This document shows, piece by piece, positions 3,181 to 34,206 of a stretch of DNA of 51,119 nt (position 1 is its first letter; every line of letters begins with the position of its first letter). Source of the DNA: Girardia tigrina (lineage: Eukaryota); the NCBI GenBank assembly GCA_001938485.1, contig MQRK01230303.1, positions 4,839-55,957 on the forward strand. Direction: 5' to 3'. The notes under the pieces were generated by a model, which was given only the letters and a program-made list of their open reading frames with translations, was not told the DNA's origin and searched no databases. The position numbers and the translations under genes are program-made.

Positions 3181-3724
3181 AAACTTCATTAATTTTAAAT
3201 TCTAATAATTTTCTCGCGACTTTTTTTCTCTTTTATTCGAAAAACAAAAATATATAATAATAATAAAGATAAAAAAATTATAATTCAGAATCACTAAATT
3301 CATTCTAAAATACAAATTTAGTTCCAAAAGAATCTTAACAATAAAATATATCAATTTAAAATGTCCACCTTTCGCCAAGACTTCTGAACTTAAATACATA
3401 CACAATTTTTAAATAATAAAATTTAATTAATAAAATATTCATTGACATCCCTGAACCCATCAATCTGGTGCCCCTTTGGAATGATAATTTATACTTGGAT
3501 TATACAATTTTGTATTGGATACGGTTTCAATTAAAACTTTCTCAAACTTTTTCATCAATCGTATTTTCAAATTGCTGTTTTCAAATATTAAAATACATTA
3601 CAGATTAATATTTAATAAAATATTAATAAAAATATTTTTTGATTTATTTAAAGATAAAAAGGACATTTAAATCACAAACTAATGTAAATAAATTATAGAA
3701 GTAAATTTAAAATAATTTTCAATT

Positions 3725-4665
3725 TTAAAATAAAAATATGTGCTGCAGCAAGTCGTCAATTGTCGCTCGTTCCGATGGATCTCCTCGTAAACAGAGACCG
3801 ATGAAGTCTTTTAGTCTCTCAGTGGCATCTTCTGGATACGTAAAATCGATTCGTTTTCTAAATCCGATTTGATATATCACTTGCGGAGTGCTTTTATAGT
3901 TGTAAAATGGTATCCGCCCTAAATTGAAAATGTCGTTTTATTCATTGAATTTAATTTAATTTTTTATTCGAACCGGTAACCATCTCAACCAGTGTTGCTC
4001 CAAATGACCAAACATCAGCAGCAAATCCATAAGGTTCACCACAAATTATTTCTGGTGCCATCCAATTAGCGGTTCCCCTTGCTGATTCGAGAACTCCATT
4101 TAACTCATCTGAATTTGCAACTTTTGTCAAGCGTTTCGCCCATCCGAAATCGCACAATTTAATATTATCTTTGTCGTCTAATAGGATATTCTCTCCTGAT
4201 ATAATTTATTTTACAGTTTCACTTGAAAGAATTTAGTACCTTTAATATCTCCATGGATAATTTGGTTATCATGTAAATACTGTAATCCTTCTAATATTTG
4301 GTCCGAATATTTGGAAATTTTAGATTCTGGTAACGCATTATTCTTCACATATGATCCCAGAGTTCCCTAGTAAATAGTCGATGACATCCACAGTTAATAA
4401 TTGATCAAAATTCATTACACCTGGCAAGTACTCCATCAATAAACATAAAGCACTATATGTATCTATTTGTCTCTCAAATCGAACAATTCTCAGATGATTT
4501 AATGATTTAATTACGGATAATTCATTGCTGAATGAATCTTTCTTTTGTTCGGTAATTTTGAACACTTTCATTGCGTATATTTTATTCGATCCAATCTCTG
4601 TACACTTGTACACAGTTCCAAATGCGCCTTTGCCCAAATATTTGTTTTGAATAAAATTTTCGATA
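3725..4665 (-). CDS. Ser/Thr protein kinase, STE11/MEKK2-3-like MAP3K-type catalytic domain (spliced; start exon uncertain)
   Basis: Exons 4665-4419, 4366-4240, 4195-3974 and 3918-3725 are joined by GT-AG introns of 52, 44 and 55 nt into one open frame. Motifs: LGKGAFGTVY, AMK, MEYLPGGTL, HGDIKGENILL, DFG, GTANWMAPE, DVWSFGAT, DPSERATIDDLLQH, then TAA. A possible first micro-exon (ATG at 4783) is speculative. Confidence 0.88.
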
Positions 4666-4819
4666 CTGAAATATTATTTAAGTAATCGATATAATTATTA
4701 TTATTATTATAATTATTATTATAAACGAATATTTTAAATTTTTAATTCAAGAAATTATATCTAAATGTTCACATTTTTACCATAAAAATTAATGATAGGA
4801 AATTATTTCAGCAAAAACT

Positions 4820-5460
4820 GAGGGATAGTTTCAAGTTCGTGCCGAACGTTTAATGAAACAGGTAATTTAGTACGAGACATTCGTCTTTAGTTCTTCATTG
4901 CCAAAAATTTCCAAACCATTTTGCGAGTTTGTTGTTTGTATGCTGTTTAGATTGGTGACTCTCCTATCCAGATGGTATTGTGTTATTGATTAGCCTCATC
5001 TGAGAACCATACGGTTTGCACTTTTCCTCAACTTTATATCGATTACTTAATTCTGTTGATTTTGAAACCCAGTTGTGGTCATCAGTTTATGATATTTGAT
5101 TCTGCGATAACATTTCAAGTGACTTTCCTTTAAAATATTGAACACTGATCCCTTTGAAATATGCAATGCAGATACCGTTTGTCATTGACTGCTGTGCGGA
5201 AAACTAGGATGAAGACTGCCATTCTAAGCAACGCTTGTTAAACCTGAGATTGAAGTTTTCGTTTTCTATCGTTACTTTCTAACGTATTTTGGCAGCGGCC
5301 ACACTAATATTCTTCAGTTTATTACACACAGTCTGAATTTCTGTAATATCAGCAAAAGATTGAGCAAAAACTTCGGTGCACTTTTTAAAGCCTCAAGTAT
5401 GGTGTTCCTTCTTAAAAAGAGAAATAACACTGCGTTGAAAATCAGTCAATTGCGGAACCA
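4820..5460 (-). mobile_element. Degenerate Tc1/mariner-superfamily transposase relic
   Basis: The minus strand at ~4993-5010 reads WFSDEA (first catalytic-Asp motif), with a C-terminal-like VRHELETIP near 4825-4845. A 47-bp piece recurs in opposite orientation at 9601-9647. Confidence 0.6.
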
Positions 5461-5989
5461 TTCTCTAAAGAGACAATAAATAATAAAATATATCATGTGC
5501 TATATAATAATAGAACAGAAATATCAACCAATCAGAGTCAGTTAATCAGCCTTTATCACATGATTAATTAAATAAAAAAGTTCCTTTGGTTTTTTTATCT
5601 AAATATAGATTTGTTTATCTTTATCACTTTAATTCAATACACTTTCGTTTCATAAAATCTTCTGGTTTTACTCTCTGTAAGCATCTTTCACGAACTATTG
5701 ATCAAAAGTTTTGGGGACCTGAACTGGAAGGAAGCAATTCTATACCTAGACGATATATTGATATATTTTAAAGACAAGAAAGAACATCTAAAAAGAATAA
5801 AGAACAAAATCGTTTTGCGAAATCTCCAAAAATTATTGATCGCCGTCGAACATATTTCGCATCGAACATAAATCGTCCATAGCTTCTTCAGAATTGACTG
5901 ATGATAATCATTAATTGAAGTCCTGAGGAGGACTGTTTCACGTTCTCTCCAATAATTAATTTTCGATAAATAACAATAAATGTGTTCTC

Positions 5990-8900
5990 GGGATCCAGTA
6001 CTTATTATTTTCCGTTGCTATAATGTCATCTCTCAGTTTCCATTTATTTGTTCTTCCTTGTTTCAAATCTTTCTTGATTTGTTCGATTTCTTCATTGTCA
6101 TTCTGCCATTTGAAATTATTTGGTTCTTCGTGTATCGCTAGAATTCAAGTTTTAATCTTTCTTTTCTTTGCTTCTTCATGTGCTGTTTGGCACTGACTAC
6201 ATAATTCGCAAGAGTTTCTCGACATAGTATCTGCATTTGAGTGTCTTTCACCTTTCCTGTATTCCATTGTCATATCAAGACCGCTAAGAAAATTTATCCA
6301 TGTTTGAAATTGCGGTGTTATTGGGTTCTTTGTGGTCATCATAAACGTAATAGCTTTGTGGTCTGTTCGCAACAAGAATCTTTTCCCATATAAGAAATGC
6401 TTAAAATGNNNNNNNNNNNNNNNNNNNNCTAGTAATTCTTTTCTGGTAATGCAATAACCAAGTTCATGTTTATTCATCTTATGAGAACCATATGCTATGA
6501 CTCTTTCTCTTCCACTCGAGTCTTTTTGTGACAGTACTGCTCCAATCGTATCGAAACTTGCATCTGTGTCCAATATAAATTCTTTATCGAAATCTGGATA
6601 CTTCAAGATTGGAGTTTGAACCATTTTTTCTTTTAATCTTTGAAAAGCTTCGTCACATTCTTTTGTCCATATTATTTTCTTATCCTTGTTTTTGCCACAC
6701 AGGCCTTCTAAAACTTTCGAATATCTTGCATAATCTTTTATGAATTTTCTGTAATAATTTGCAAACCCAAGAAACTCCTTAAATGTTTAATACATGATGG
6801 GTTTTGAAATTTGTTAATCGCATCAATCTTTGTTTTATCAGTTTCTATACCATCTTTACTTATTACGTAGCCCAGAAATTTGGTCTTTTCTACTAGAAAT
6901 TGACATTTCGCTGGATTTATCCTCAAACCTGATTCTTTGATTTTTTGAAACACATTCTTTATTCTTTGTATATGTTCTTTCTTATCTTTAGAAAATATCA
7001 AGATATCATCTAGATATACGACTGCTTCCTTCGAGTTCAATTCCCCAAGAATTTTTACCATTAGTTCTTGAAAGGTGGCCGGGGCGGCTGCTATTCCGCA
7101 TGGCATTCTTTTAAAACAATATTGACCATTCTTTGTCGAGAATGCCGTTTTAATCTTTGATTCTTCCTCAAGTTCAACTTGATAGTATGCGTTTCCCAAG
7201 TCAATTGTAGTGAAATACTTTGCACCATTCAATGTGTTTAACATATCATCCACATTTAGCATAGGGAATGCTGGTCTGAGAGTAACTTTATTTAATTGTC
7301 GAAAATCCATACACACTCGTATTTCTTGTTTCTCTTTCTTCCAGACGCATACCAATGGAAAGTTCCATGGTGAACTACATTTTTCGATTATATCATTTTC
7401 TTCAAAATTTTTAATAACTTCGTCTAATGTTTCATCAAAATGCTTTGGTTGTCTATACGGCTTTACTAACACCGGTTCACCATTAGTCTCAATTTTGTGT
7501 TTCGTCAACGATGTTTTCCCAATATCCCATTTATCTGTCATGAATATCGACTTAAACTCTTTTATCATGTTCATCAACTGATCATCGACCTTACCTCGGT
7601 ATAGGTCCGTTATCCTTTTCAATCTGTCTTCATCTGATGGGCTATCCCTTATCATAAATACATAACTATTTTGTATTGATTTATTAATCAGCTTTATCCC
7701 AAAATTATCCAAAAAGTCCACCCCTGCTATCATTTCTGGGTTCATTCCTTTGACAACATAGAATTTTATATTCTTTTGGTTCCCTTCAATTTTAATCTTC
7801 AAGAGTACTGTTCCATAATTTATTAATTTCAAAGCATTTGCGCACGCTAAGCGTCTTCGCGATTCTCTAATCCTAAAATTTGGTATGTTCTTAATTAAAC
7901 TTAATTCAATCACATTTACTCTAGCGCCGGTGTCTAAAAGACAGTGTACTTCTCTATCTTTAATGTAAAAATCTATACTTGGTCTACCATCCAGTTTGTC
8001 ATATTTAATGTTAAGCTTTGTTATTTTTAAAATTTCTTCATTCTTCGTTTTGTTTCTTTTTTCTTCCATTTTACTACTAAAACAGTTTCCTTCACATTCT
8101 TCTTTCCAACAATCTAATTTACAAACTTCGAGGTGGTTATTTCCAGTCATACAATTACATATACAATCACACACACCATCATACTTATTTTTATCATTTA
8201 ATGAAGCACATTGATCACCGCTCCTGGTGATCGTGCCTCCTCGTTTCCCTGATCATTTTCATACGTTTATCTCTTTATCGGGGAAGACCCTTTTAGTTAA
8301 CTTTCCTTGATTTGATCTAGTCCATTCGTTTTCGCTGTCGTCATTGCATTCATCAATTTCCGCAACTGGGTATTGACGATTTTGAGGTCTATTATGGTAT
8401 CCTGCATTATGTTTTTTCTTCCAATCGCTGTTTCTACTGTACTGTTCTCTTTCCTTAAATCTATTCTTGTTAAGATAACATTGAGTTCTATAATGGCCAT
8501 TTCTGTTGCAGTGAGTACACTTCACATTTGGGCAATCTCTTCTTATGTGGCCTTCTTGACATGCAAAACATTTTACAGTTCTGTTAGAATTGTTTTTCGG
8601 TTTGAATCCATTATTACCTTGGTTCCTATTGTTGTGTTCGTAATGTCTATGCGGGATTCTTTCGTTGTGTACAACTTTGCGTCTAGGTACGGTTTTCCAA
8701 TTATCTTGTTTATTTACCGTTGTATATGCGCCACTGTTTCCTCACTTTCCATTTTACGTAGTTCGTACATATTGGTAACTACGCTTTTTATATCTTTGGT
8801 TTCAGTTGTTCCTCTCAGTTTTAATTCTTTTTTGATTTCATAACTGTCAACCATATTTAAATAGGCAAGGTTGAGTAGTTCTTTTTCAGACAATTTTTCT

Positions 8901-9344
8901 TTTGTTAATATATTCACAAGTTCTTCTGGGTTGGAGGATCTCCCCCGTAAGTTTACCAACTCTTTCATTGTATCAAGAATTGATTTTTCTTTAGTAAATG
9001 CAGCCTTCAATTTTTCTTTGTAATTTTTACCGTCCATCTCTAAATATATTTTTTATTGCCAATGTTGTCATAAACACAGTCACCATCACTATTTTCCTCT
9101 CTTCTGTTATACCCATAATGTTGGATTAGAGTTCGAAATTATCAATGAAATCTTCCAAATCCGATTCTGATCCATTGAATTTTTCACATCCCATAATGTT
9201 CGTTGTCACATGAGCCGTGGTCGCCATATTAACAGCATCACAATTTGAATGCAAACATTTATTGACAACACAAACGGTTTCTTCACAACAATTTTCATTG
9301 GTCATCTTTCTTTGATTAATATAGTTTTTTTTTAATATATTCAA
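5990..9344 (-). mobile_element. Ty3/gypsy LTR retrotransposon relic (gag-protease-RT-RNase H; integrase and LTRs not seen)
   Basis: Gag fragments with a CCHC knuckle CTHCNRNGHYRTQC (8259-8525), aspartic protease LLDTGA, RT motifs SPWNFP / DFRQLN / YLDD (6738-8174), and RNase H DTDAS...IGAVLSQ...TDHKA...NAD (6145-6624). Frameshifted and truncated after ~5990. Confidence 0.95.
8203..8249 (-). promoter_or_regulatory. Programmed -1 ribosomal frameshift signal (gag-pol): slippery G GGA AAC plus downstream stem-loop
   Basis: Minus strand: CA GGGAAAC GAG GAGGCAC-GATCACC-AGGAGC-GGTGATC-AAT-GTGCTTC. The -1 frame (GGG AAA CGA...) is continuous with the pol ORF 6738-8174. Confidence 0.75.
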
Positions 9345-10271
9345 ATCTAAAAAAACAATGAATGGGAAAGTTTAATAATAAATTTTAATTTCTCATAATT
9401 TTATTGGATAAAAGTCATTACATAATTTTTTAAATAAACATTAATTTTTAAAATATATTACATTTAATAAGTTAAAATCATTTACTGAAAATATTATTAA
9501 AAATCATAATTACCAAACTTTAATTAATTAGTACTTAAAATTAATATCATTAAATTAATTTCATTAGATTCAAATAATCAATCAATAAACATATCAATCC
9601 CATCTGAGTAGGAGAGTCACAAATCTAAACAGCATACAAACAACAAAATTACAACATTCCAAATTATCCCTCACACTTGTAATTATTTTTGTAATCTTTG
9701 CAATCAATTTTCCAACGAAAGTTACGCAATCATCATTTTTTAATTTTCTAAAAAATACAATACAATTCGTGGAAGAGCTTTAAGTTGATCCCTTCAGAAC
9801 TCAGGAATTCTACACTAGAGACATTAATAAACTTGTTTCTCTTTGGCAAAAATAGATTGATTCTTATGATTTATATTTCAATTAATAAAGTTTATTCTGT
9901 GCTGAATTACATTTTTTTAAAGTTTACATTTCTTTTGCAACAACCTAATATTAAATCAGAATTAGTAAAATTAAAAATATGGTATTCTACTGTATTCGGG
10001 TACATGACGATATATGTCCTATTCAAAAGTTAATAAGTGTATAAATGATATCAACTAATAAATGAATTGTTCTGTACGTCCACGCTTTATGCGGGAAGAA
10101 GTCCATTTGCGATCAGTTTTGTTTATCTTTAGTAAAAGGGTAAATTACTAAACACTTTATAATTTTTACATTAGAAACAATTGAATTGGGAAATGTAGTT
10201 GTAAAAAAAGATTTAAAATAGTTGCTAATATCATAATAGATTGATTAAAAAATTATATATATATATATATG

Positions 10272-13200
10272 CAGTGGTGAGCTATAAGGGGCTCGCATGA
10301 GTTCTTTGTTAAATGGTTCTATGATTTTCCAGCAAGTTTTTTTTATTTCCCTTGTTCTTTTTTTATATATGTAATAAACAACAGTAACTATTAGCATTAA
10401 TATTTAAAAGTATTATTTACAGATTTGTTTTAATAATTTTACAAACATTTTCACTCATAAAAAATGAATACAAATAAATTTATTAAATTTCTTTGGAGAA
10501 GAAAAAAGAAAGAAATATGATACTATTGAAGTTGAGAATGAGGTTAACAATAATACGCACATTGATTCAATTAATGTGATACAAGTTGGAAAAGAAAATG
10601 AAAATAATTTACCTGATTGTTGGAGCGAGAAGCAAACATCGTATTTTAAAATACAATACAAGTGGTTATAAATTACAAATGGTAAATTGGGATGTCTTAT
10701 TTGCTCCGAATATAAAAACTTGAGTCTTGAAGAAAAACATTGCCATGTATCAAAGTAATGAATAGAAATGAAGTTGGAACCGAATGGAAACACTAAAGAT
10801 TCAAGAACCACGTAATCTAAGCAAAACGAATCATAAAAATAACCGAAGAAAGTAAGAAATCAATATTACCAAATTTAATTGATAACTTCAAAAATATTTA
10901 ATTCAGTCTATAGTCTGGTGAAGAGAAACCGACCGATGTCTGATTTACCCGATTTAATAGAGCTTGAGATTAAAATATTATTAATAAAAAAAAATTTTAT
11001 AAAAACAACCACGTTTTTCAAGCATTACCAATGCACTAAAAAGAGGAAAATAATTTTTTTTCTAGACATGTGTGAAATTTTATACCTAACCAAAAACGTG
11101 GGGCATAGAAATGATCAATTGTTACTAAAAAGCAGTAAAGAGGAAATAGCAGTTACTAATAGCAGTAATTCAGAAATCCGCCCGAAATATTATTTTTAGA
11201 AATATTATTTAACTATTTTTAGTTATCATTTAGGAATTTTTTTTTCAAAATTTTTTTTTATCAAATTGTATTGTCATCGGAAGCAAGCCTGTATAAAACT
11301 TCATTCATGAAAATAAACGAAAAGATTGCTATTTAATACAGTGCATAAATTTGTAGATAATCGTAAGTGGTTTTTTGCAAAAAACATTAGAAAAATTTAT
11401 TTTTTTTCAAAATTTTTTTTATCAAATTGTATTGCCATTGGAAGCAAGCCTGTATAATAAAATTCAGCTCAATTGGGTGACTGAAAGTGGTCGAAAAATC
11501 AATCGCAAGATTTGTTCCAGACAGACAAACAGACAAGAAAGCAAGCTAATAAAAACGTGGTAAAAATGGTATTGATTTTGGATTATCGTTGCATTCTAAA
11601 TTCTCAGGAATTAAAATAGCCAAACACATTTTCAAACAGATAAAACTAGAAATATTATTTAAAATAATAGAAAAAAATTGCAAAATTGCTATTATATTTG
11701 GCGAATCGACAAAATTATCAAAAACAAGTGTATTAGTAGTTTACTTACAAATTGAGATTACTGAACCATGTGTGATTTTTCTCTATCTTGTAGAGTTAGA
11801 AAATACTACCGCCAAATGTATACATGCTAATTTTATAAATACTTTAAATGCATATGGATTTACGATGAACTATTTGAAAAATCATCTCCTTGCATTTTGT
11901 TCTGATGAAACAAGTATCATATTACGAAACAAATCAAGTGTTGCTATCAAACTTCTAGAAACATATTCCTACATTGTGATTTGGCATTACATAGCTCATC
12001 GTTTAAAATTAGCTTTAGATGATGCGATAAAAAACATTAAAGAAACATTGAAGAAAAAAATTAAAATCATTTTTAAATATTTATAGATAAATTATATTCT
12101 TGTTACCATTAATCGCCTAAAAATAAACGAGAATTAGATATTATTCCTAAAAAACTTGGTATTGAAACTTTAAAGATCAACCATGCATGTAGTTTAAGAG
12201 CAACTCTTGCTGTATGGAGGAATTACCCAGTTTTATGGCAGCATTTTGCTGTGAATAACATTTATAAAGGCTTTTTAAACCGACTTTTAAATTTAGAATT
12301 TTTAAAAGATCTAGCATTAATGATCGATATCCTGCAGGAATTATCGTATCTCTCAGAAGGCCTACAAATTCGTAATATAAGCATTGTAAGAGCTATTTCG
12401 TTGATAATGCGAACAATCAATGTAATTAATAATTTACAAAATTCTTCTGGTTGTTACGTATCTAAAATTGAGTATATGTTAAAATCACAAGAATTTGAAT
12501 GTAATATCAAATTTCATAAATTACCACGAGAAAAATTACTTAACTCACTCGTGATGTCTTTAAAGGTTAGATTAATGCAACAAAGCAACTTTAAACTTAA
12601 AGATTAAAATTATGAAGATTCAGAAGATGAGTAATTCAAAAACATATTTAATGTATTTCTCCTGAAATATGGAATATAGAAGAAGTTACGTATCCCTGGC
12701 CAGAAGGAGAAAAGAGAATAAGAACTTTGAATTTTATTTTGAAAATGAAATTAAAATAAACGACTTCAGAGATTTAGTAGAAAACACAATCACTGGAAAA
12801 TTCCAAATCGAAATTCTCAAAACCGTGAAAAAAGCCAAGATCATTATGGAAACAATAGCAGTTAGCAGCTCTGAAGCTGAACGAGCTTTTAGTTCGATGA
12901 ACAATATCGTTACAACGAAAAGATCTTCTCTAACCGTTAAACGTGTTTCCGATTTTATGACTATCTGCTAAAATGAAAAATCTTTGGAAGAATTTAAACC
13001 TAACCTATATGTTAAATCTTTTTTAAAAAATCATCGCTTGGCTTTGGATAAACCTAAAGAATCAAAAGACGTGAAGTAGGAATAAAATACTGTATGGCGG
13101 CTTCTGGAATAAGTTGTCATTGCCAATATTCTTGTAGTAGTACTTTTAAGTTCTCTTTTACAAATGTCATATTTTTTTTATTTTATTATATTGTTTGTTG

Positions 13201-13378
13201 TATTATTTGTTGTATTTATTATTAATATATATTTTATTTGAAATGAACCATTGAAACCATATTTAAACCTTGATTTTGTGTTTTGTGTCAGTCTCAATGA
13301 CACATTGTTAGATCATAGTTCATACGATTCGCGAGAAAGGAGCAAGCCCCTTGCTAAAAATTTCATAGCTGACCACTG
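10272..13378 (+). mobile_element. hAT DNA transposon (ZNF862/DUF4371-like transposase, degenerate) with TIRs and 8-bp TSD
   Basis: TIRs CAGTGGTGAGCTAT / ATAGCTGACCACTG; TSD TATATATG at 10264-10271 and 13379-13386. Transposase fragments RNRPMSDLPDLIEL, FCSD, HYIAHRLKLA and the dimerisation motif VSSSEAERAFSSMN. Confidence 0.92.
10975..11565 (-). mobile_element. Non-autonomous Helentron/HINE (DINE-1-like) insertion nested in the hAT transposase
   Basis: Interrupts the hAT frame (LIELE | KNGIDFGLSLHS). Sub-terminal inverted repeats ACCACGTTTTT (11008-11018) / AAAAACGTGGT (11551-11561), an (ACAG/ACAA) microsatellite next to one end, a small hairpin GCATT-ACC-AATGC (11022-11034), insertion in an A/T run, and an internal ~60-bp duplication (~11237-11300 and ~11400-11460). 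Confidence 0.55.
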
Positions 13379-14035
13379 TATATATGTATCCATTGAATTT
13401 ATAAACCTATTTTTGAAGGCTTTTACTCCATCAATTTTCTTCGAATTTGGCACACTTACTCATTCTCGATGAAAATAAATAATTATGTGAAAAAATGATC
13501 AAAAAACTTTTTAAGGTCTCAGAATTGTGATAAAAACGGTCCATCGAAGTTCCTGAACATTGTTAATTAAAAAAGATCTACTTATAAATTCTAAGTAGTT
13601 TATATTAATTTTTTATTGTTTTTTTAAAATTATTTGTTTAATTAAATCTTTGTTGGCAAAGTAAATATCTATCTGCATAAAGGAATAGATATAAAAAATT
13701 TAATTTTTTGATTTACTAGTTAGTTCAAATTTTCACATGATCATTTATTGTCATCAAAAATGAGTAAGTGAGCAGTATGAATAAAATTGATTGAGTAAAA
13801 AGCCTTCAAAAACAGGTTTCTAAATTCCATGGAAAATAATTTATTTTTTTCTTTTCAATTAGTAATATATCGGCAAATAAATTTCTCATCTGGTCACTCT
13901 ATTCGTCCTCGTCATTCGAAAATATTCATTACTCATTTTTTTTGTTTTCCCTCAAATTCTATCACCACGATAAATAATTACAATAAATAATGTTGAGCAT
14001 TTTGTTTTAATACTCCAATAATAATAATTATCGAT

Positions 14036-15760
14036 TTACATTTCTTTAATGTGGTAATAAATTACGATTCTATCTTCTCTGTTTCTCGTTATTTTGCGTC
14101 GGTCCAAGAAATTATCGTCTGTTTTCACTCGATTGGTTTTGTTTCTGTCATAATATAATTCCAAAGAGTCTTTCGGTACGTCAAATCGATTCGATAGAAA
14201 TTTGTTGATACTCGATATTCGATTGTTGTCAGAACAGACTTCGAATGATCGACATTTGCTATTGATTGGGACGAGCGATAAGGATAACTCGATTTTACTG
14301 GAGATAAGTGAGTCGATAATTATAAGTAAATCGATAATCAAATTTTACTCTGAAATAATTTTGTAATAAATATCGATTTTGTAATGATCAACGCAAAAAT
14401 TTTCAGAATTATTTAATAATTCATAAATATTTGAATCGTTTATTTTATATTGAGATATCGATTGAGGTTGAGAGAATAATTCGATTGAGGAAGGAGGCAC
14501 TTTTGTTAGATTGGAGATTTCAGAGATGATATGTGATAAATTGCTGGACACTGAATTTATTTTGTATGATTCACGATTGATATTGACTGGGACAAAGTTT
14601 ATTGATAGAGGAGCACCACCGCCTCTTCTATTACAAATTGATTAATTAATTAATGCGAATAATATTAAAATTATCTAACAATGGTATATCCGCACTGATT
14701 GTGTTTCCATCTTCTATTCCATAATACTCGAGTGTTCTGTGATCATCTAATCGTGTGGAATCAAATTTAAATTTCAGGTCGTTAAACTTATCTCTGTCAA
14801 ATTCTCCTCTTAAATCACATATACGATATTTCAAATTGCGAATTATCTCATTCGATCTCGTATGTATCATGTATCTATATTTTCCATTAACTTCATGTAT
14901 TGTCACTGTAATCGGTCTGATAAATAAAATGATCATAATTAAACCATTCTCGATCGCTCTCACCTTCCGCCATATTGTTCCATACAAATCTCATATGTCC
15001 GTCTAAATAATTCTCTCGCTGATTATTTGTATAAAATATCAATATAAATCGATCACTCACATTCATTTTTAGAAAAATTTCTAAACGATTTTTCTGAATT
15101 TGATGCGCAGTTCCTATTGCAAATTGATCAATTAATTCAGTCGAATAATATTAAAATTATCTAAAAATGGTTCATACGCATTGATTGTGTCTCCATCCTC
15201 TATTCCATACGACTCGAGTGTTCGGTCACCATCTAATATTTCGCCTGCAAATGAAAATTCCATTGATTGAATCGTGCTTGAGTTTGTTCCCATTCGATCA
15301 CATAATCGATACTTCAATTGGCGAATTGTCTCATTCGATCTCGCTTGTATCGTGTAGTTACGACCGTTTGTGATCACATCTTGTATAATCACACTAATCG
15401 GACTACAATACATCAAATGATCGATAAATCACTCTCAATCGACACAACTCGCTCTCACCTTCCACGCCGCAAATGCTCTCTATTGAATCTAAACGGAATC
15501 AATTATTAATCGACTCATTCCCTTCCTCAAACTCACTCTCGGTATTCCTCATTCCAGTCAAACAAAACATAATCGTCTTGTCCAATCTCGTATTTCCCAA
15601 TCCATTCGTGAGGAAAACAAATTCTATTTTCGAATATCAACAGAATATCCTCACACGGTTTGTCTACTTCATCCGCCAGCCTCTTCATGACATCCGATAC
15701 GCTGGCACCCGCTTTTATATTTAATGTATAATTGCGATTATCGTAACTTTTGAATCTCAT
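14036..15760 (-). CDS. Multi-ubiquitin/SUMO-like domain protein (~454 aa, 8 exons; 3 clear and 2 probable beta-grasp repeats)
   Basis: Exons 15760-15537, 15488-15459, 15402-15178, 15113-15061, 15018-14964, 14916-14680, 14627-14349 and 14297-14036 total 1365 nt in one open frame, with GT-AG introns of 42-64 nt. UBL signatures FAGEILDGDRTLESYGIEDGDTI and FDSTRLDDHRTLEYYGIEDGNTI. Linkers HLRRG|SP, EQYGG|RP, PLRGG|GAP. Confidence 0.82.
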
Positions 15761-16408
15761 TTCGATGAAAAATTAAACGATTTTATAACACTTTCCTCTC
15801 TGAATACTCCGCTATCTTCCGCAATCACTTACTAATTCCGCGTTTATTCAGTCAAACAAATTGTATTTTCATAACGAATGATTACGGATAACTTTACAAC
15901 TGAAATCGTCATCGACAGTGAACCTCGATTAATAACAATTTTTTTAAATTTCTTTTTGTATTTTTCGAATAAACTAGCAAATCAAAAAATTAAAATTTTT
16001 CTATTCATTTTTTATGCAGACAGAACTCTCTACTTTGTCGACAGTTTTAATTAAAAAAAATAATTAAAAAAACAATAAATAATTAATATGAACTACTTAG
16101 AATTTATAATTAGATATCTTGCAATTGATATTGTACGGGAAATTCGAATTTTCCGGTTTTTTCAATTTCGGGATCTTAAAAATTTTGTTTCGATCAAATG
16201 TTCACTTTGTTAAGACACTGGGTAAAGGAGAATTTGCTTTCCTTCACTCGACTATGTGCTTAACAAGGAAGATCAACAATCTTCAATTATTTTTTTTAAA
16301 CCTTTTTTCTAAGTTCCTTTAAACAAAAGAATTAATGTTGATACTCACTGAATTTTAATTTTAATTTAAAACCTTTTATCAAAATCAACAATTAAATGAT
16401 TATATCTT

Positions 16409-16862
16409 ATGGGCGATGGTGTATAGTTTACACCAATATTTATAGGGACAGGATGCAGGTAACGAGACGAGGTAATGAACAATGATCGTCGTATGTTTGA
16501 TGATTTCCGACGTCGTCCTGTTTACAGGAAGGCTAAAGAGGACTATAGCGATGTCGATCGTTGCATTCGCAACATCCTGCTTAGCGGTGGCAGCATCTTT
16601 GTCGGCGCGTGGACCAACAATATTTATCGTTTCGACGAACTTGGCAAGGTAAACTATTAGTATGCGTTTGCTAATTGTTTATACTTATTCAGGGTCTACT
16701 ACAATGATGTCGAGACAGCGATTTCGCTTTGGATTAGGTGACTTTAATTCTATTAATTAAGAATTTTTTAACTTTTCAGGTTATTCAAGCAAGCCAAACG
16801 GACCGAAATCTCGCCCCGACTCGGCATTCCGACAAGCTGGGAGCCAATTAAAACCACTTGAG
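16409..16862 (+). CDS. Small spliced gene or pseudogene of unknown function, divergent from the UBL gene
   Basis: GC-richer exon-like blocks are separated by GT..AG introns of ~40-55 nt (near 16473-16527, 16649-16692 and 16738-16779). One frame reads through three exons (RLKRTIAMSIVAFATSCLAVAASLSARG...WEPIKTT*). Start and product are unresolved. Confidence 0.4.
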
Positions 16863-17594
16863 GATAATCGAGTTTGACTATCCTCAAATACGTGGAACAC
16901 GGGCTCTCATGCGTAAGGGGTGTCGGGTTTGGGACAGGATTTATATGAAGCTGCCTCGGGAGATTTGGTACAGGAAAGGGTTTGTATAATTGTGTCTCTG
17001 TCGTAACACTATGTTTCATAATCGAAATCTGTAAGCTTTAAATGATGCAATTAGAAACAGAGAATTGAAATACAAAATAAAAGAAAGGATGGAATGTTGT
17101 TAGTGAAAGATAAAGTATTATTAGTAAAACGTTTGACGAATTAGAATAAATTAAAAATGAGAGTGATAATAAAAAATTATATCGAATAGTATCGAGCATG
17201 GTGAAATCCTCTTTTACAAACTCATATAAAATATTTATAAAGTAACATCGGTCTCGAAATAAAACTGGATTTCAATAAATTATAATTGTGTGAGTCGAAG
17301 GACGACAAGGAACCTTTCGGAGATGACGCAGGCTGACCGTAGCATGTAAGGGGCACGCGGGCAGACCGACGTTTATTTCCTTGGGGTACGCCTCTCTCCA
17401 GCGGTAATCCTCATACGCCCCTCAGGAGCCAAAGGAGCCGAGTCGGTGTTTCATCGGGTTTCACCCCTCCACTGATAGTGGGCGTTGTCAGAAGACATTT
17501 CCACATCCCGCTCGGATAGCAATGCCTTTTAAAGGGGTGGATTGCAGGCCCAGACCCCCGTACTATGTTGGTCAGTACCCTAAAAAGGCAAGCT

Positions 17595-17693
17595 TCGGAC
17601 ACTTTAGCCTAGAGCAAGCTCTAGTTTCCCAGGGACACCACGTGGAGGTATGTCCGACTGGCTTAACACAGGTTACCAAAGTAACAGATCCCC
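17595..17693 (-). ncRNA. HDV-like (double-pseudoknot) self-cleaving ribozyme, copy 1
   Basis: Minus-strand RNA: P1 GGGGAU/GUCCCU with a G1-U wobble, P2 UCGGACAU/GUGUCCGA, P3 ACC/GGU, L3 UCCACGU, P1.1 CC/GG, P4 CUAGAG-CUUG-CUCUAG, and J4/2 GCUAA containing the catalytic C. Predicted cleavage is 5' of G17693. Confidence 0.88.
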
Positions 17694-19346
17694 AAAATTT
17701 TGGGGGGTAATCTTTGTTTATCGTGTTTAAAATCGAAATTTATCGAACGGTCATGATATTAGCATCATCCACTCAGAAACTGAGTTACCAGTCGGGTCAT
17801 CCTCGGTACTGGTAGAGAACACGAAGGCGCACCGACGTACACACAACGTGTTGATGTCACCGAAGGAGACGCGTCTGTTCCCGTAATTAATAAGAAAATA
17901 GAGAGCAATCACCGAGGGAGTATGAAGAGGGGTAAGATAAGTGTGAGTTGCCGTTTTACTCAGGAAAGCGGATGGGGGCTCAGGGCCAACGAAGATGTCT
18001 TGAAACGGAGGGAACACGACAATATATATGTTATTTTCTTCAATTTTGCATAAATATTATTTTGTTTATGTTTTATTAATTTTTTAAAATGTTTAAATTT
18101 AGATCTTTAAAAGTATTTTAATGGACATCATGTAAAAATTCAGTTCCTAAATAATTTTTCTCTAATTTTAAATCATTCCATTTTAAATTATTTTTTTAAT
18201 AAAACTTTCCATTGACAATTAAATTCAATAACATTATGATTTTTATTATAAACTTGATTTTAAAATATTCAATAAATTATTTTTTAATAAAAACTTTCCG
18301 CGTACAATTAAATTCGATAAACATTCTAATTTTATTTTAAATAGTGTTACATAATATTCAAAATCTTCTTTACAATATTCTTTAACTTTGATGATAATAT
18401 TTTAATTGTGAATTTTTAAAACTTAATTTTTATAAAAATTTGTCTCAATTTAATTAAAATATTATCATTACTCTAAACTTTTCAAAAAAAACTTATTTCA
18501 TTTTAATTAGTAACATACTATCTGTGAACTATAATTTTTACAAAAATTATTTCAATTTGATTAGTAGAAATATTACCTATAAAATGTATTTTTTATGCAA
18601 TCTTATTTATTTTAATTAGTAAAAAATATTATCTATAACTTAAATTTTTTATTTAAAAAAATATTTCATTTTAATTAGTCGAACATTATTTTTAATTTAT
18701 CTAAAATATAAATATGATTTTTAATTTAAAAATATCAAAAATTTAAAGTTCACCANNNNNNNNNNNNNNNNNNNNNNNNNNNNNNNNNNNNNNNNNNNNN
18801 NNNNNAGAAAGTTATTGTTTATATAGAAAGATGACCATTGCGTCACAGTGTGTTACGTCAAAATACTCTAATATGATTGGACGAATCACTTTGCACATTT
18901 AGACTAGGTTTACAAAACTTTATCTAGAGTGCTTCAGTAACTGTCCTTTCATAATTGTGATCAAAGTTACTAATCAAAACCCGAAAATAATAACTTTCTA
19001 ATTAAATACAGAACTGAAGATGCCACAAAAGTGGCGAAACATGTTTTCAAACGTCGGTCTTAGTCTTTTCGGAGATGATGCAGGCTGACCGTAGCATGCA
19101 AGGGGCACGCGGGCAGACCGACGTTTATTGCTTTTGAATACGCCTCCCTCCAGAGGTAATCTGCATACCCCCGTCAGGAGCCAAAGGAGCCGAGTCGGTG
19201 TTTCATCGGGTTTCACCCCTCAAATGATAGTGGGCGTTGTCGGAAGACATTTCCACATCCCGCTCGGATAGCAATGCCTTTTAAAGGGGTGGATTGCAGG
19301 CCCAGACCCCCGTACTATGTTGGTCAGTACCCTAAAAAGGCAAGCT

Positions 19347-19445
19347 TCGGACACTTTAGCCTAGAGCAAGCTCTAGTTTCCCAGGGACACCACGTGGAGG
19401 TATGTCCGACTGGCTTAACACAGGTTACCAAAGTAACAGATCCCC
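19347..19445 (-). ncRNA. HDV-like self-cleaving ribozyme, copy 2
   Basis: Same sequence as 17595-17693, offset by 1752 nt. Confidence 0.85.
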
Positions 19446-20628
19446 AAAATTTTGGGGGGTAATCTTTGTTTATCGTGTTTAAAATCGAAATTTATCGAAC
19501 GGTCATGATATTAGCATCATCCACTCAGAAACTGAGTTACCAGTCGGGTCATCCTCGGTACTGGTAGAGAACACGAAGGCGCACCGACGTACACACAACG
19601 TGTTGATGTCACCGAAGGAGACGCGTCTGTTCCCGTAATTAATAAGAAAATAGAGAGCAATCACCGAGGGAGTATGAAGAGGGGTAAGATAAGTGTGAGT
19701 TGCCGTTTTACTCAGGAAAGCGGATGGGGGCTCAGGGCCAACGAAGATGTCTTGAAACGGAGGGAACACGACAATATATATGTTATTTTCTTCAATTTTG
19801 CATAAATATTATTTTGTTTATGTTTTATTAATTTTTTAAAATGTTTAAATTTAGATCTTTAAAAGTATTTTAATGGACATCATGTAAAAATTCAGTTCCT
19901 AAATAATTTTTCTCTAATTTTAAATCATTCCATTTTAAATTATTTTTTTAATAAAACTTTCCATTGACAATTAAATTCAATAACATTATGATTTTTATTA
20001 TAAACTTGATTTTAAAATATTCAATAAATTATTTTTTAATAAAAACTTTCCGCGTACAATTAAATTCGATAAACATTCTAATTTTATTTTAAATAGTGTT
20101 ACATAATATTCAAAATCTTCTTTACAATATTCTTTAACTTTGATGATAATATTTTAATTGTGAATTTTTAAAACTTAATTTTTATAAAAATTTGTCTCAA
20201 TTTAATTAAAATATTATCATTACTCTAAACTTTTCAAAAAAAACTTATTTCATTTTAATTAGTAACATACTATCTGTGAACTATAATTTTTACAAAAATT
20301 ATTTCAATTTGATTAGTAGAAATATTACCTATAAAATGTATTTTTTATGCAATCTTATTTATTTTAATTAGTAAAAAATATTATCTATAACTTAAATTTT
20401 TTATTTAAAAAAATATTTCATTTTAATTAGTCGAACATTATTTTTAATTTATCTAAAATATAAATATGATTTTTAATTTAAAAATATCAAAAATTTAAAG
20501 TTCACCAAAAGGAACTCAAACACCAACAAATCCTCAAAACAAACTAAATTCATTATAACAACAACAACATCAAAACTTTGCCTTTGTAATTCAAAAGCAT
20601 GATTGCCGCCACGTGGAATTTCTTGTTC

Positions 20629-23031: not shown

Positions 23032-25488
23032 TAGGGTTTCTGGATGCTGTTTAACAGTAACAGTAAAACAGCTGTTTTTTCGTCAAAAAATCAAAAACAG
23101 CAAACAGTTGTTTTTTCATCACTGTTTTTTTACTGTTTTTCAGTAAAACTTAAAGTTTTCCTTTTAAAGTTTTACCTTTGAAACTTCTACCTGTAAAACT
23201 TTTACTGTAAACAATTTTTGGAGATTTTATTAACAAAAACATATGAAAAATGTATAAAAAGCGTTTAACCAAAAAAAAACTTCAGTATCCCGCCATGTGC
23301 GGGACAATTAATTTCTAACGGCCAAATTTTAAAACGTATTTTCACATAATGTGAAACAGAAGCCATTACTAATAGAAAATTAATCATTTAAAACAATTAA
23401 AAACAAATTAAAACCATTGATTTACTTAACGAAAATAATTAAATCAGAAAAAATATTTATTTCAGTAAAAGTTGCAATGTTTTTTTATAATGTGAATCAC
23501 ATTATAAATCGTTAAGTAAATCAACGATTTTAATTTGTTTTTAATTGTTTTAAATGATTAATTTTCTATTAGTAATGACTTCTGTTTTGGAATTTGCCAC
23601 AAAACGACGAAATCCGTACACAAAAGAGCTTGAAGGTCAATGCAATCGATGCAATAGCATAATTAAGTGCTCTGGCAATTCAACGACAACTTTAAAGAGA
23701 CATCTACAGCGGCATGGCATCAAGTTTGATCAGGCTGGGGAACCAAGCACATCCAAGGATGGAATTCAGACCGAAAAGAGACAAAAAACTGTTGCTGACT
23801 TTTTTGAACGAGAATCTCTCAAGGAAATTGTATCAGACATGGCAACGGATGGAGTAACTATTCGAGCAATAACAAGAAATAAGTTCATTAGAAAATCCAT
23901 AACACGCGATGGTCACAAATTGCCTGCGAATGAAACTGATGTCATGAAACTATTGTACGATGATTTTGAAGAAAAACAGAAGAAAATGGTTGATGAGATT
24001 CAAGCGAAGGTTGCGAAAGGTATCAAGTTCAGCATGACCGTCGATGAGGCTACAACTTTACGTGGTCGTCGATATTTNNNNNNNNNNNNNNNNNNNNNNN
24101 NNNNNNNNNNNNNNNNNNNNNNNNNNNNNNNNNNNNNNNNNNNNNNNNNNNNNNNNNNNAGCATGATTGAAATTCTTCGAGATCATCTCAAATCGTTTGG
24201 CATTTCAATGGAAAAAGATTTGGTTGGATCCACACAGGATGGAGCTGCAGTTAATAAAAGATTTATCAGCCTCATTGATGCTATCTGGCAGTTCTGTCTC
24301 AATCACAGTTTACACCTTAGAGTATGTGACACTGTACAAAAAGAAATCTGAAATTGAAGAACCAATCATCATTGATGAAGATCCAAATGAGGAAGATAAT
24401 TTTGATGAACCAACCGATTTTGAATTCATCAATGAAAACCATAATGAGATCGATTATCATGAAATACTCAAAAAGTCTCGCAAGATTGTCAAATTATTCA
24501 AACATTCACCTGTTCGAAATCATGTGCTTCAAACAAAAATCAAACAAATTCACTCTCGAGAAATTGAAATGCATTTGGATGTGAAAACACGCTGGAATTC
24601 AATCCCAACCATGCTTGAACCGTTAATTAAAACCGAAGCATCAATTCGTGAGACTCTTCAGGATTTCAAAGCACTCGATCTGATTGAAAACTTTGATTTT
24701 GNCGCTCTGAAATCATTGCTAGCAGCAATGGAGCCAGTTAAGCTAGCAGTAGAGAATCTTAGCAGAGAGGACTCAACTTTAATGAGCGCGGATACAATTT
24801 TAAATTTTATGTTCACAAAACTATCAAACATTAAAAATGAAATTGCAGAGAAATTACTGGAAAATCTAAAGCAGCGAGTTGGTGAAAGACTCAATCCCGA
24901 CTAAATGAATCTCTTACGCAGCCTGAAAGATCCATCGATTGTGCCTTCGAGAAACACGATTAATTTTGCAGGTAGTCTTGCAAAACGACTATTTGAAGTT
25001 TCTAACGAAGATACTGGCGATCAATTACCTCATGAAGAAATATCTGAAAATTTATCAATGCAGGAGGAACTAAATGCTTTGCTTCAAAAAAGTGAAACTA
25101 CAGTCACGCCAGCTAATGATGCTTTCAAGTGGCTAAAGTCGGAATTTACACTTTTCAAGAACACTGGACAGCGAACTGAAAACCTACAAAAACTCTTAAA
25201 TGTCATTTTGACCATCAAACCCACTTCCACGGACGTAGAACGCGTGTTTTCTGTCACCTCAAGTTTTTGCACAAAAATTCGATCTCGTCTATCAGATAAA
25301 TCACTGCAAGCATTGGTCTTTTTGAAATATTATTATAATAAATCAAATAAATAATTAAAAGGCTTTAATTTCATATTAAAAAGTTTTTTTCCTTACATTT
25401 AATTTAATAAAATTCAAAAAACAGTTTTTAAAAATCAGAAACAGTTAAACAGCTGTTTTTTGAAAACCACTGTTTTTCAGAAACCCTA
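23032..25488 (+). mobile_element. hAT DNA transposon (BED-finger transposase; near-complete, with a frameshift and stop) with TIRs and 8-bp TSD
   Basis: TIR TAGGGTTTCTG / CAGAAACCCTA; TSD ATTTAGAC at 23024-23031 and 25489-25496. BED finger CNRC..HLQRH, TVDE, TQDGA, CLNHSLHL, DVKTRWNS and PTSTDVERVFS. Sub-terminal AACAG repeats. Confidence 0.95.
23354..23587. repeat. ~79-bp-arm inverted repeat overlapping the hAT transposase start
   Basis: AAACAGAAGCCATTACTAATAG...ACTTAACGA (23354-23432) versus TCGTTAAGT...CTATTAGTAATGACTTCTGTTT (23509-23587), with few mismatches. Confidence 0.9.
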
Positions 25489-28356: not shown

Positions 28357-31300
28357 TCAACTTAACTGTTTGGTATCAGCTCCACGCGTATATAAGGCAG
28401 AACGTAACCATCTTCGATATTCTTCAGCCTTTTGAGCATTGGGTATATTTTTTAACCATTCTCTTGTACTTATGTTCTTACAGTTTTTACACCATGATGT
28501 ATTACTAAATTCATAAATGTCTTTAACTTCTTTACATTTTGTACATATTTCAAATATATTTTCTTGAACAACTGTGTTAAATTGAACTTCTTCTACTTTT
28601 TCATTCTCATAAATATCTTCTTCATGATATGATGATGCTTTATCAACTTGAAAAAATGATTCTTCTTCTATTTCCCAAGTCACATCATCAGAAATATCCA
28701 CTACCATTTTTCCATTTATTGCTTTATAATTTGAAATATAATAAGGATTCATCTTTGAATTTGCATCAGGTTCTCTCCTTTTTAAAAGATTCACATCATG
28801 TGTAAAGGTTTTAATGATGCAATCTTTTTTATCTGATTTCTTAATTCCATGTTGATAATCTTTTTCCCATGGTTTTATAATTTCCGAAGAAACATTTTCA
28901 GTTGATATTAATTTGAAGAAATCATCTGATTTAACTTTCTTTTTTATTTCCTTTGAATGTTTTCTTCTCTAATATCATTACATCGTTTAAAACTATGTTA
29001 TATTTTATTTTAGGTGCAATATATCGTCCAAATATAATTCCACCTTCTCCATAATCGTTTTTGCCTTGCCACATATTACCTCCAACGTAACCATTAGCAT
29101 TTAATTGATCATAATATTTTTAGATATATAAATTGAATAAGAATCTGAATAATATACATGAGGTTTTTTAAATCCATCAATAGTTTGTATAAATTTATTC
29201 ATGAATCTTTTTGAGTGTGCTAAAATAAATGATACAAAATGAACAGGGGTTGAAATGAGTTTTTATGTTTTTTACTTGATTTTATAATTCATTCTTTAGC
29301 TTCTTCAAATGTTAAATCAATTCCTTTTCGATTTTTCTTTCGTTTCACAACCCATAAATCTTTTCATTATTATTAAATCAACATAATTTTGTTTTAAGGT
29401 TGAAGTGCTCCAAATAAACATTTGATAATCCCCATTTGAATTGTTTTGCCATATAGTGAATTCATTAACAGTTTAACCATTTCATCTCCTACTTGATTTC
29501 CTTCAGCTTTATATTGTTTTCTTAAGTTGAATAATTTTTGAATAAATGATTTAAATGGAGACTAAGGTAAGTTTCTTTCATAAACAGTACCCTCATATAT
29601 ATTTAAGATTTCTCCTCCAGTTTCTACAATTTCTTGAATATCTACACTTGTTAAAACATCTCTAGCATATCCATTTCTAAATCTATTTACTTCATATTTA
29701 TTAGATTTCTCTCCATCTAAGATATTGTCTTTTACTGGAAGATGTTGTAAGAAGTTATCCGGTGGATAATGATATTTCACGTCAAAAAACCCTGTTCTTG
29801 GTCTAAACTTTTTAGAATTAAATAGTTTTAGAAATTCAAATTCGTCTTCTGGTTTAAATGCTCCTGCTGATTTAATATCAAGAAATTCACTATCATCATC
29901 GCTCATAGCACTTGGATATAAACTTGTAGCATCAAATGCCATTAAAAAATCAATTATCACAATTTTTGAGATTTTTATCTCTTCTCTAATTTCTAGAAAC
30001 TTTTTAACTGTTTCATTTTCTAGACATTCCTCCGGTATTGGTTTTTTAAGCCGTTTAAAGTCTTTCTGTCCTACTATTTTTAAAGTTGAATTTATAATCG
30101 ATGTCTTATACCATTACACAATTCAGGAATTTTTGTAAAATCGACATCGACATGTTTATTTAAAATCTTTAATATTTCATGCCATAATGGTGAATTGAAA
30201 TCTCTAATTGATGCAAACACTCTTCCTCCTGTGATTGATTTTCTAATAAAATCTCTCAGATATGGTTTTGAATGCGTATTAATGGGTTCTTTCTCAGGCT
30301 TAAACCATCATTTTAATGTTAAAGATGGAATTGTAAGACATGATGACATGTTTTGACCTACTAAATCCATCATCACTTTTGAATATTTTAAAACACAACA
30401 TGCTGCAGATATTACATCAAGTCTAAGATATGAGTCCCATTCGTCGCGTTTACTATGCTAATTACTTAATGTATGGTTTTCGTGATCTAATTTAGATTTT
30501 CTTAAATTCATAGGTATTTTAAATGTTTGACACATTGATTCTAAACTATATTTACAATGTTTATAAGAGTCTATAAATATTAGTTTTTGTAAAAACTGAC
30601 CGTTTAAATTTTTCTTTCTTGTTTTTTTCATAAACGATTGTTTAATTAATTCTTGATTTTGTGTACTTGTGAAAGGATTTGTATTTTTCCTAAATATTTA
30701 AATATATCGGTTAAACAAATTCTAATTCATTCGAATATTTGTACATTTTTATTAATTTCATCTAGTATAAGTTGATTGAGATTTTCTCCTGGATTTAAAG
30801 ATTCTCCTAAAATATTTTCAACATCTTTAATGCGTACAATTCCAACAACCAAGGTTCAAAATAACCCATTTTATTTGGTGATCCTTCTAAATCCCAGAAG
30901 AATGTATTATCTTCATTTACATTTTTTGTATTTATAATATAATTTATAATATCTTTAACATTTTTATCATTAGAAGTGATTTTGAATTTTGTAAAATTCT
31001 TTTTAATTTCTTCAATGCCTTTCTGTTTATTTTGTTTATCTATGAGACAATAGTGATTTTGATAAAGATAGAAAACCATGTCATCATTATTATCTCTAAC
31101 ATTTTTATTTGGATAAAGATGTCTATTATTTTCATCATATCTTAGAAAATTTGTATTAAATTTATTATTAAAGGATGCCATCTTTTTTCCGTCATAACAC
31201 CTTTTCCTGTATGACCACTATTACCATGTAAAAACTTTTTATATTTTTCAATCATAATTTCATTTATACATTCATATAGTGTTTTAGGTACAAAACATTT

Positions 31301-33493: not shown

Positions 33494-34205
33494 TTACAAA
33501 TTATTAGTGAAGTTTATCCATTCCTTCACTAATTTTTGCTCATTCTCATTCAATGTCATTTGAGAATTGTGAATGTTATCTTTTGGTATTTGCTTTCTTA
33601 AAATATCAAATGCGTGTTTCATATTAATTCTTGCTTGAAATTCTTTCGATTTAGTCAAATATAAAAGAACGTGTAAATTTGACAAAGCAATAAATTTATC
33701 TTCTTTCATGAAGTGATTCATATATGCTTTAAAAGTGTTATAAGTTTGACATTCATTTATATTTTCTCTATTTTCAATAGGGAATCGACTGCCAGAATTC
33801 GAATTTTTAGAAAGGGTGAACATTTCGTCGACTGAAAAAGCTACATTTAAACTAACAAGAAAATATTCCACTGGTACGGACCGAGCCTCTTTTGTGACTG
33901 CATTTCCGTATTTATCAATTTTTTTGTACAAGATATCAGGTATAAACTGATTCTGTAATGCAAGTTTGGTGTATACAAGCTCGGGAGCGTCAAACAACGG
34001 TACCAGAATATTTTCCTTCACTAATTCCATGCAGTGATTTGATACTTGATATCCTTCAAAATCAATTTTATTCTCTTTATTTCCAGTGACGATTATAGTA
34101 ACAAATTTTGATCCATATTTTCCATCTGGATTTAAATTGCACTTGTTGGGAAAAATGTTTTGTAAAGTGGCTGCAGTTATGCATTCTTCCGCTGTCATTG
34201 TAAAA
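33494..34205 (-). pseudogene. NPLOC4: NPL4 (nuclear protein localization 4, p97/Cdc48 cofactor) C-terminal half, intronless, 5'-truncated by a repeat
   Basis: EECITAA..QN..PN.C...PDG.YGSKFVT..VTG....I.FEGYQVSN.CM.LV, PD..YK..DKYGN.V...AR..PVEY, FPIENR and LSN.H.LLYL are NPL4 hallmarks. The frame is open for 234 aa and abuts the AT-rich repeat at ~34207. Confidence 0.85.
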
Positions 34206-34206
34206 T

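Follow-up and report, generated by a model that had tools for sequence, protein, structure and literature searches.

Does the minus-strand locus at 14036-15760 encode a precursor that is cut into several small modifiers, or a protein whose ubiquitin-like domains (UBLs) stay in place? The original prediction had described tandem ubiquitin/SUMO-like domains ending in HLRRG|S, EQYGG|R and PLRGG|G, followed by two more beta-grasp-like units, and had read them as a precursor of new modifiers or, alternatively, as a multi-UBL scaffold or decoy. We studied the locus in the window, by which we mean the whole stretch of DNA analysed (51,119 nt; all positions refer to it). The genome measures 1.43 Gb, and the contig that carries the gene is rich in AT and transposons.

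Nine public runs contain the stretch. None of them is labelled RNA, and we treat their contigs as spliced transcripts because GT-AG introns are skipped exactly. The transcript data come from the contigs of six runs (X1, X2, X5, X6, X7, X9) from three studies. When the proposed model was rebuilt, it gave a 454-aa frame that is open over eight exons with GT-AG introns of 42-64 nt and starts at ATG 15760, with an in-frame stop upstream. The seven introns (15536-15489, 15458-15403, 15177-15114, 15060-15019, 14963-14917, 14679-14628 and 14348-14298) are all skipped in four of four runs (X1, X5, X6, X9). In a second set (X2, X5, X6, X7) three of four runs skip all seven, and the shallow X7 skips five. 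The proposed junctions are hence confirmed in contigs of the six runs. This includes the critical 14680/14627 joint that makes P-L|R-G-G, which was found in six of six runs, so that the LRGG indeed forms in transcripts. Upstream, the 5' UTR covers 15761-15853, with contig starts at 15830-15853; a 27-nt non-genomic tail at the contig ends of two runs is presumably a cDNA adapter. The locus is a real, expressed gene.

The gene does not end at 14036, where the original prediction had placed its stop. The apparent stop consists of the first letters of the intron-8 donor. In four of four runs the contigs leave the stretch at 14040, all with the same loose end, and the depth at 13952-14035 is zero. 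The joint from 14040 to 4665, which skips 9,374 nt (intron 8, 4666-14039), is present in four of four runs (X2, X5, X6, X7). After 4665 there are three further introns before the contigs end at 3646-3728. According to the spliced contigs, the full product has 716 aa over 12 exons and the order UBL1, linker, UBL2, linker, UBL3, unit 4, unit 5 and a kinase domain of 263 aa (aa 454-716). A real minor isoform that stops in intron 8 would still provide a kinase-less 454-aa poly-UBL precursor or scaffold. The unspliced donor does give an in-frame stop, with ATTAAA at 14011; in a paralogue the same donor is followed by a comparable stretch with AATAAA, and contigs drop rare forms. However, every exon-8 contig runs on to the kinase exons, the letters behind the donor have no depth in any of the four runs, and polyadenylation-type hexamers are common in 70% AT DNA. 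We consider such an isoform very improbable.

Several other features surround these exons. Intron 8 contains Gypsy-type (protease, RT, RNase H, zinc knuckle) and hAT-type remnants at 6145-8741 and 11553-12971. A second contig of run X9 agrees with exon 8 over part of its length and then diverges at 14115 for at least 255 letters, possibly as a paralogue or allele. On the plus strand, coding-looking segments at about 16400-17030 lie head-to-head with the UBL-kinase gene, about 0.6 kb upstream. Elsewhere, the window holds an NPL4-family exon (33494-34219, E 1e-53), an exportin-like fragment (40726-41487), a type B DNA polymerase fragment (29562-30113), a BED/hAT transposase (23554-25354) and a near-identical GC-richer repeat at 17408-18056 and 19160-19808, 1.75 kb apart. 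An Rfam match was found nowhere in the window.

What kind of kinase terminates the protein? Exon 9 (4419-4665, minus strand like all exons of the gene) encodes the N-lobe with GxGxxG at 465-470, K487 and E502 (PF00069, E 3e-16). Exon 10 (4240-4366) provides the catalytic loop HGDIK with D576. Exon 11 (3974-4195) carries DFG (594-596), the activation segment and APE (625-627), and matches MAP3K2 (PDB 9p6a, E 3e-14). The C-lobe follows in exon 12 (3646-3918), which also contains the stop (3727-3725), the 3' UTR and an AATAAA at 3648. All catalytic motifs are intact: GKGAFG, K487, E502, D576/K578/N581, DFG and APE, with HGDIKGEN as the catalytic loop. The HRD motif reads HGD here, as in three of the 17 rows in which this loop could be read, and the activation-segment Ser is invariant in eight of eight family rows. 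Whether exon 11, the family profile or the outside relative P0013 is compared with solved structures, MAP3K2 9p6a comes first, and after P0013 the top-scoring proteins are MEKK2/3-type and other MAP3K. We assign the kinase as MEKK2/3-like, from the STE11 group of MAP3Ks, and predict from its sequence that it is active. The accessible part of PMC12780230 reports that human MEKK2 dimerises and trans-autophosphorylates via helix alphaG, and that its PB1 domain drives recruitment of MEK5 while alphaG drives that of MKK6. In a by-eye comparison, four of the seven dimer-interface residues named there are identical in our protein, and F571 is Tyr.

The N-terminal part carries the three ubiquitin-like domains. 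UBL1 (aa 1-74) is encoded by the coding part of exon 1 (15537-15760), UBL2 (aa 85-159, without a C-terminal GG) by exon 3 (15178-15402) and UBL3 (aa 196-274) by exon 6 (14680-14916). In the spliced contigs, the linkers stem from exon 2 (15459-15488, ending in HLRRG|S), exon 4 (15061-15113) and exon 5 (14964-15018, ending in EQYGG|R). Exon 3 (PF00240, 46.2 bits) and exon 6 (29 bits) pass the Pfam ubiquitin cut-off of 25.4 bits, but exon 1 stays just below it (21 bits, E 3e-4). UBL1 is homologous to the N-terminal domain of P0013, which passes PF00240. Compared with the ubiquitin of this genome, the three domains have 15-22 of 76 residues in common. Exon 6 is a tandem duplicate of exon 3, with 81% DNA identity over 149 nt, intron included. 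In the UBL2 module, the donor matching that of UBL3 lacks its GT, and the transcripts use a donor 12 nt upstream (15177-15166 compared with 14691-14680).

Of the three proposed cut sites, two do not have the form of a ubiquitin or SUMO end. HLRRG|S has a single glycine, hence no di-Gly, and the nearest paralogue shows NLRDE|S at this place. EQYGG|R, which the original prediction had likened to the EQTGG of SUMO, closes the linker exon ahead of UBL3 and ends 37 residues past the strand-5 'TI' of UBL2, whereas the distance is 9 in ubiquitin and in UBL3 (28 too far); the nearest paralogue has EQIGG|R. The likeness of PLRGG|G to the ubiquitin LRGG, on the other hand, is confirmed, because it sits in exact register, 9 residues after the strand-5 'TI' of UBL3, and is made by the joint seen in all runs. 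An in-register di-Gly ends one of the five units, UBL3 only. That the LRGG (aa 275-278, 14618-14681) is created only by splicing is true but ordinary: RGG is encoded wholly in exon 7, the intron 14679-14628 splits only the Leu codon, and exons 3, 6, 7 and 8, which are all the internal beta-grasp exons, are bounded by phase-2 introns. A myristoylation-type pentapeptide after the LRGG was dropped as a candidate, as the pattern in the form used for the count fits 11 of 39 glycines here and, in a set of fetched proteins, 1,052 of 6,377. Residues I44, V70 and R72 of ubiquitin contact the E1 and the deubiquitinases (DUBs). UBL3 has Lys, Asp and Pro at these positions, which makes it less likely that the ubiquitin E1 and typical USPs would act on it. 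UBL1 has an Ile at the I44 position and does not keep V70. With a 263-aa kinase at the end of the protein and two of three sites that are not of the ubiquitin/SUMO type, a stand-alone precursor that is cut into several modifiers is not supported, and it is the scaffold or decoy reading that fits the result.

The two further beta-grasp-like units of the original prediction are upheld by structure prediction. Exon 7 (14349-14627) encodes RGG and unit 4, exon 8 (14040-14297) encodes unit 5, with 29% identity between the two related units (E 8e-10). Using a 22-row family alignment, AlphaFold predicted the beta-grasp fold with confidence for both (pLDDT 84 for unit 4, 86 for unit 5). The unit 5 model is without a second helix and matches UBL structures (TM 0.70; Z 9.4, rmsd 2.4, 78 aligned); among the 50 matches listed for it (VIA) there was no PB1 entry. 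The unit 4 model shows a second, PB1-like helix at 58-67, and here PB1 4mjs (Z 9.2, rmsd 2.9, 79 aligned) is tied with FAT10 (Z 9.0), followed by the MEKK3 PB1 (8.6) and IKK1 5ebz (Z 7.6). The sequences take neither side. Units 4 and 5 have no convincing match in Pfam, none of 22 unit-4/5 members matches Pfam PB1 at E<=1, no family locus is among the six PF00564 matches of the genome, and hhalign gives probabilities of 1-7% to PB1 sets and UBL sets alike. Canonical PB1 pairs employ a strand-1 Lys and an acidic motif; the conserved Lys and the full acidic motif are not present in units 4 and 5. The unit-4/5 profile had no sequence match among solved structures. Its five matches among 1.84 billion representatives were rejected, all being short and in unrelated repeat proteins. 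Unit 4 and UBL1, when searched against longer proteins, yielded no matches (weak negatives), and in the ESM Atlas the leads for unit 5 were all sub-0.9 and the matches of P0013 1-400 were kinase-driven.

The paralogue search that had been suggested revealed an expanded kinase family in the genome. Its nearest member, C189655, has the same three UBLs and five unit-4/5 copies, compared to two in our gene. Its kinase is 78% identical over exons 9-11, and its UBL1 is 80% identical, which makes UBL1 the best conserved non-kinase module. C189655 lacks LRGG and LRRG, with no GG at the LRGG position, and keeps EQIGG. A unit-4/5 exon lies directly upstream of the kinase in 18 of the 20 closest distinct kinase places (one miss is masked) and ubiquitin-like exons occur in 7 of these 20, whereby identical entries were merged and some of the remaining ones may be haplotypes in the fragmented assembly. 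At five more distant kinase loci and at the MEKK2/3-like gene of the genome, no unit-4/5 match was found. With paralogue junctions as predicted, a di-Gly after the last UBL is present in three of eight members (our gene, C221742a and the degraded C221742b) and absent in C189655, C159699, C131804, C75769 and P0013. In C221742a its distance from the ubiquitin register is 5 residues. Our gene and the more distant C221742 pair have in common that the unit-4 exon starts with R/Q-GGG. P0013, a Logan protein of 585 aa, combines UBL1, a second UBL, a unit-4/5-like stretch and the kinase without di-Gly. It is the only one of 120 listed protein matches with this architecture and is 38% identical over unit 5 and kinase. 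At five places (L040, L044, L050, L051, L054) we observed kinase-unit-kinase tandems; the DFG or catalytic motifs of the first kinase are changed in them, so that a pseudokinase may be paired with a kinase. Pairwise dN/dS values against C189655, from this single paralogue pair over 42-197 codons and without a significance test, are 0.49 for the kinase, 0.66 for UBL1, 0.53 for UBL2, 1.08 for UBL3 and 0.51-0.68 for units 4 and 5.

From these data we favour, with somewhat more confidence than doubt, a lineage-specific MAP3K with uncleaved, shuffled UBL modules, which would be interchangeable units for docking or sensing through which the kinase is recruited or clustered. We prefer it because the transcripts run continuously into the kinase, MAP3K2 is the best match and three introns are shared with a MEKK2/3-like gene (see below). 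It is further supported by the unit-4/5 exon ahead of the kinase in 18 of 20 places, the varying copy number, the missing di-Gly in five of eight members, the loss of I44, V70 and R72 in UBL3 and the dN/dS of 0.49 for the kinase against 1.08 for UBL3. On this reading, the LRGG would be the inherited tail of a donor UBL and dispensable in most family members.

Could the array instead be a side effect of duplicating exons in a genome full of repeats, made of redundant, drifting duplicates with little function? The degraded copies C69775, C221742b and C243127, dN/dS values of 0.5-1.1 in all modules and the tandem partners with degenerate kinase motifs would be expected from drift. This view is, however, difficult to reconcile with a 716-aa frame that is open over 12 exons, expressed in three studies and intact in its catalytic residues, with the same architecture in the distant P0013 (38%) and with a unit-4/5 fold that is kept at about 25% identity. 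We regard it as improbable. Another function for the N-terminal UBLs, chiefly UBL1, would be that of a degron or a proteasome/p97 handle, which shortens the life of the kinase or tethers it to ubiquitin receptors. UBL1 would be the natural candidate, being the most conserved non-kinase module, with Ile at 44 and a counterpart in P0013, and in the accessible part of PMC3741686 a wheat UBL-PI4K protein kinase is reported to interact with UFD1. Yet UBL1 is under the Pfam cut-off and lacks V70, and a degron leaves the five to eight modules, the family-wide unit 4/5 and the members without ubiquitin-like exons unexplained, so that we give this idea only a small chance.

Where did such a family come from? 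The genome has a separate PB1-bearing MEKK2/3-like gene (C236871). Its three internal kinase introns are shared with our gene in position and phase, which supports common descent with MEKK2/3; the intron that precedes the kinase is shifted by two codons and has another phase. In a 37-row kinase tree, from which C75769 and C225973 were left out (<110 aa recovered), the family forms a modestly supported 17-row clade (95/76) with a strong 12-row subclade that includes our gene (96/96). The tree does not resolve the link to MEKK2/3 and does not place the family as sister, and the UBL tree is mostly unresolved. A duplicate of a MEKK2/3-type gene may have shed its long linker and, by exon shuffling and tandem duplication, acquired ubiquitin-like exons out of the genome's large pool of divergent UBLs.

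This pool is substantial. Among 29 loci returned by our UBL searches, a selected and not a random set, we found 12 distinct single-domain UBL open reading frames (ORFs) that end in GG at the exact 9-residue register (C240450, C235718, C98962/C238126, two in C247168, C210950, C236377 at L131:1495-1725, C11593/C159081/C159082, C59553/C101557/C202547, C186569, C115852 and C232929). They mostly have 0-6 extra residues past the GG, one having about 20 to the stop, and share only 18-25 residues with ubiquitin. Additionally, long poly-UBL ORFs that have no introns and count from five up to nine or more divergent units are found at L145:130-2463 (C187624), L147:1483-2805 (C12560), L139 (C197494) and L138 (C187537), and two long ones carry GG after the last unit only, like an extended ISG15/FAT10. 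All ten of the free and poly-UBL ORFs that were scanned pass Pfam ubiquitin. Exon-repeat arrays with one UBL per exon are located at L017 (C238403), L092 (C211583), L014 (C212235) and L015 (C171558), with no di-Gly in the parts read. As a separate observation, at least 150 near-canonical ubiquitin copies exist genome-wide (3,445 candidates, 150 scored), many in open frames of 300-1,700 aa and possibly carried by a mobile element. The 12 free di-Gly ORFs are, judged by sequence, candidates for lineage-specific new ubiquitin-like modifiers. In this sense the proposed new modifiers may exist, but they are not products of this gene. Several free UBLs are matches of our UBL2, and in C221742a the identity of the last UBL is 33% to ubiquitin but 44% to one of the free UBLs; the kinases therefore appear to carry UBL copies from a private pool of putative modifiers.

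Such a pool also raises the question of cleavage at the one site that is in register. The three UBLs could form an ISG15/FAT10-like cap that is cut at LRGG|G, either by a host UBL-processing protease or by a microbial deubiquitinase lured by the decoy, which would free unit 4-unit 5-kinase and alter its activity or location. The LRGG is in exact ubiquitin register and is spliced in all six runs, the P1' residue is Gly and not Pro, and the 12 free in-register GG ORFs together with the two poly-UBL ORFs could imply broadly UBL-tolerant proteases. Moreover, C221742a/b retain R/Q-GGG despite a kinase divergence of about 0.8 substitutions per site, and such retention is stronger than one would expect of a dead vestige. 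However, with paralogue junctions as predicted, the di-Gly is absent in five of eight members including the sister paralogue, it is out of register by 5 residues in C221742a, and UBL3 has Pro at 72, Asp at 70, Lys at 44 and a dN/dS of about 1. Taken together, cleavage appears unlikely to us. Equally doubtful is its extended version, in which private di-Gly modifiers are paired with MAP3K baits and the cut at LRGG|G releases an activated kinase, so that the cap would be a deubiquitinase-sensing tripwire. If true, MAPK signalling would be wired directly to attacks on the ubiquitin system.

For the uncleaved MAP3K that we favour, all five beta-grasp domains likely stay attached to the kinase, and the array would replace the single PB1 domain as the input module. 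It would recruit or cluster the kinase and thereby promote trans-autophosphorylation, and MAP2Ks of a stress or defence pathway would receive its signal. If MEKK2 is a guide, dimerisation may proceed via helix alphaG, with phosphorylation of MKK3/6-type substrates. Only the pattern of expansion, shuffling and decay suggests a role in defence.

How does this architecture compare with known systems? Like MEKK2 and MEKK3, the protein combines N-terminal beta-grasp module(s) with a C-terminal kinase and keeps most dimer-interface residues. MEKK2 and MEKK3 proper, however, have one PB1 domain and a linker of approximately 200 aa, whereas here five beta-grasp units abut the kinase, three of them of the ubiquitin family. 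The protein also has HGD instead of HRD and belongs to a multi-copy, fast-changing family, in a genome that has a separate PB1-bearing orthologue as well. TBK1 and IKK, with an uncleaved single UBL C-terminal to the kinase, share the kinase beside a beta-grasp domain but differ in the position and number of UBLs and in the kinase family. ISG15, FAT10 and OASL are divergent tandem UBLs with di-Gly after the last unit only, and in UBA52 and FAU a UBL is fused ahead of another protein with GG at the joint. Compared with ISG15, FAT10, UBA52 and FAU, the partner here is a kinase, the GG is not family-wide, and key ubiquitin surface residues are lost. The plant UbDK-gamma/PI4KII-gamma proteins, as far as covered by the accessible part of PMC3741686, also bear an N-terminal ubiquitin-like domain on a protein-phosphorylating kinase, but they have the PI3/4K fold, one UBL in the wheat protein and an unrelated origin. 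Planarian map3k1 is described in the accessible part of PMC11981174 as a RING-bearing kinase. In the literature available to us (most subscription papers were outside reach), we found neither a UBL-array MAP3K nor a planarian family of this kind described. The fusion of a MAP3K to ubiquitin-like exons whose number, type and tail differ from paralogue to paralogue hence has no precedent that we could find in this literature. Immune sensor families are known for birth-and-death evolution and integrated decoys, and the pattern of the family resembles theirs by analogy. The kinase family, together with 12 or more free di-Gly UBLs, offers a test of whether an invertebrate lineage invented ISG15-like modifiers along with reader kinases.
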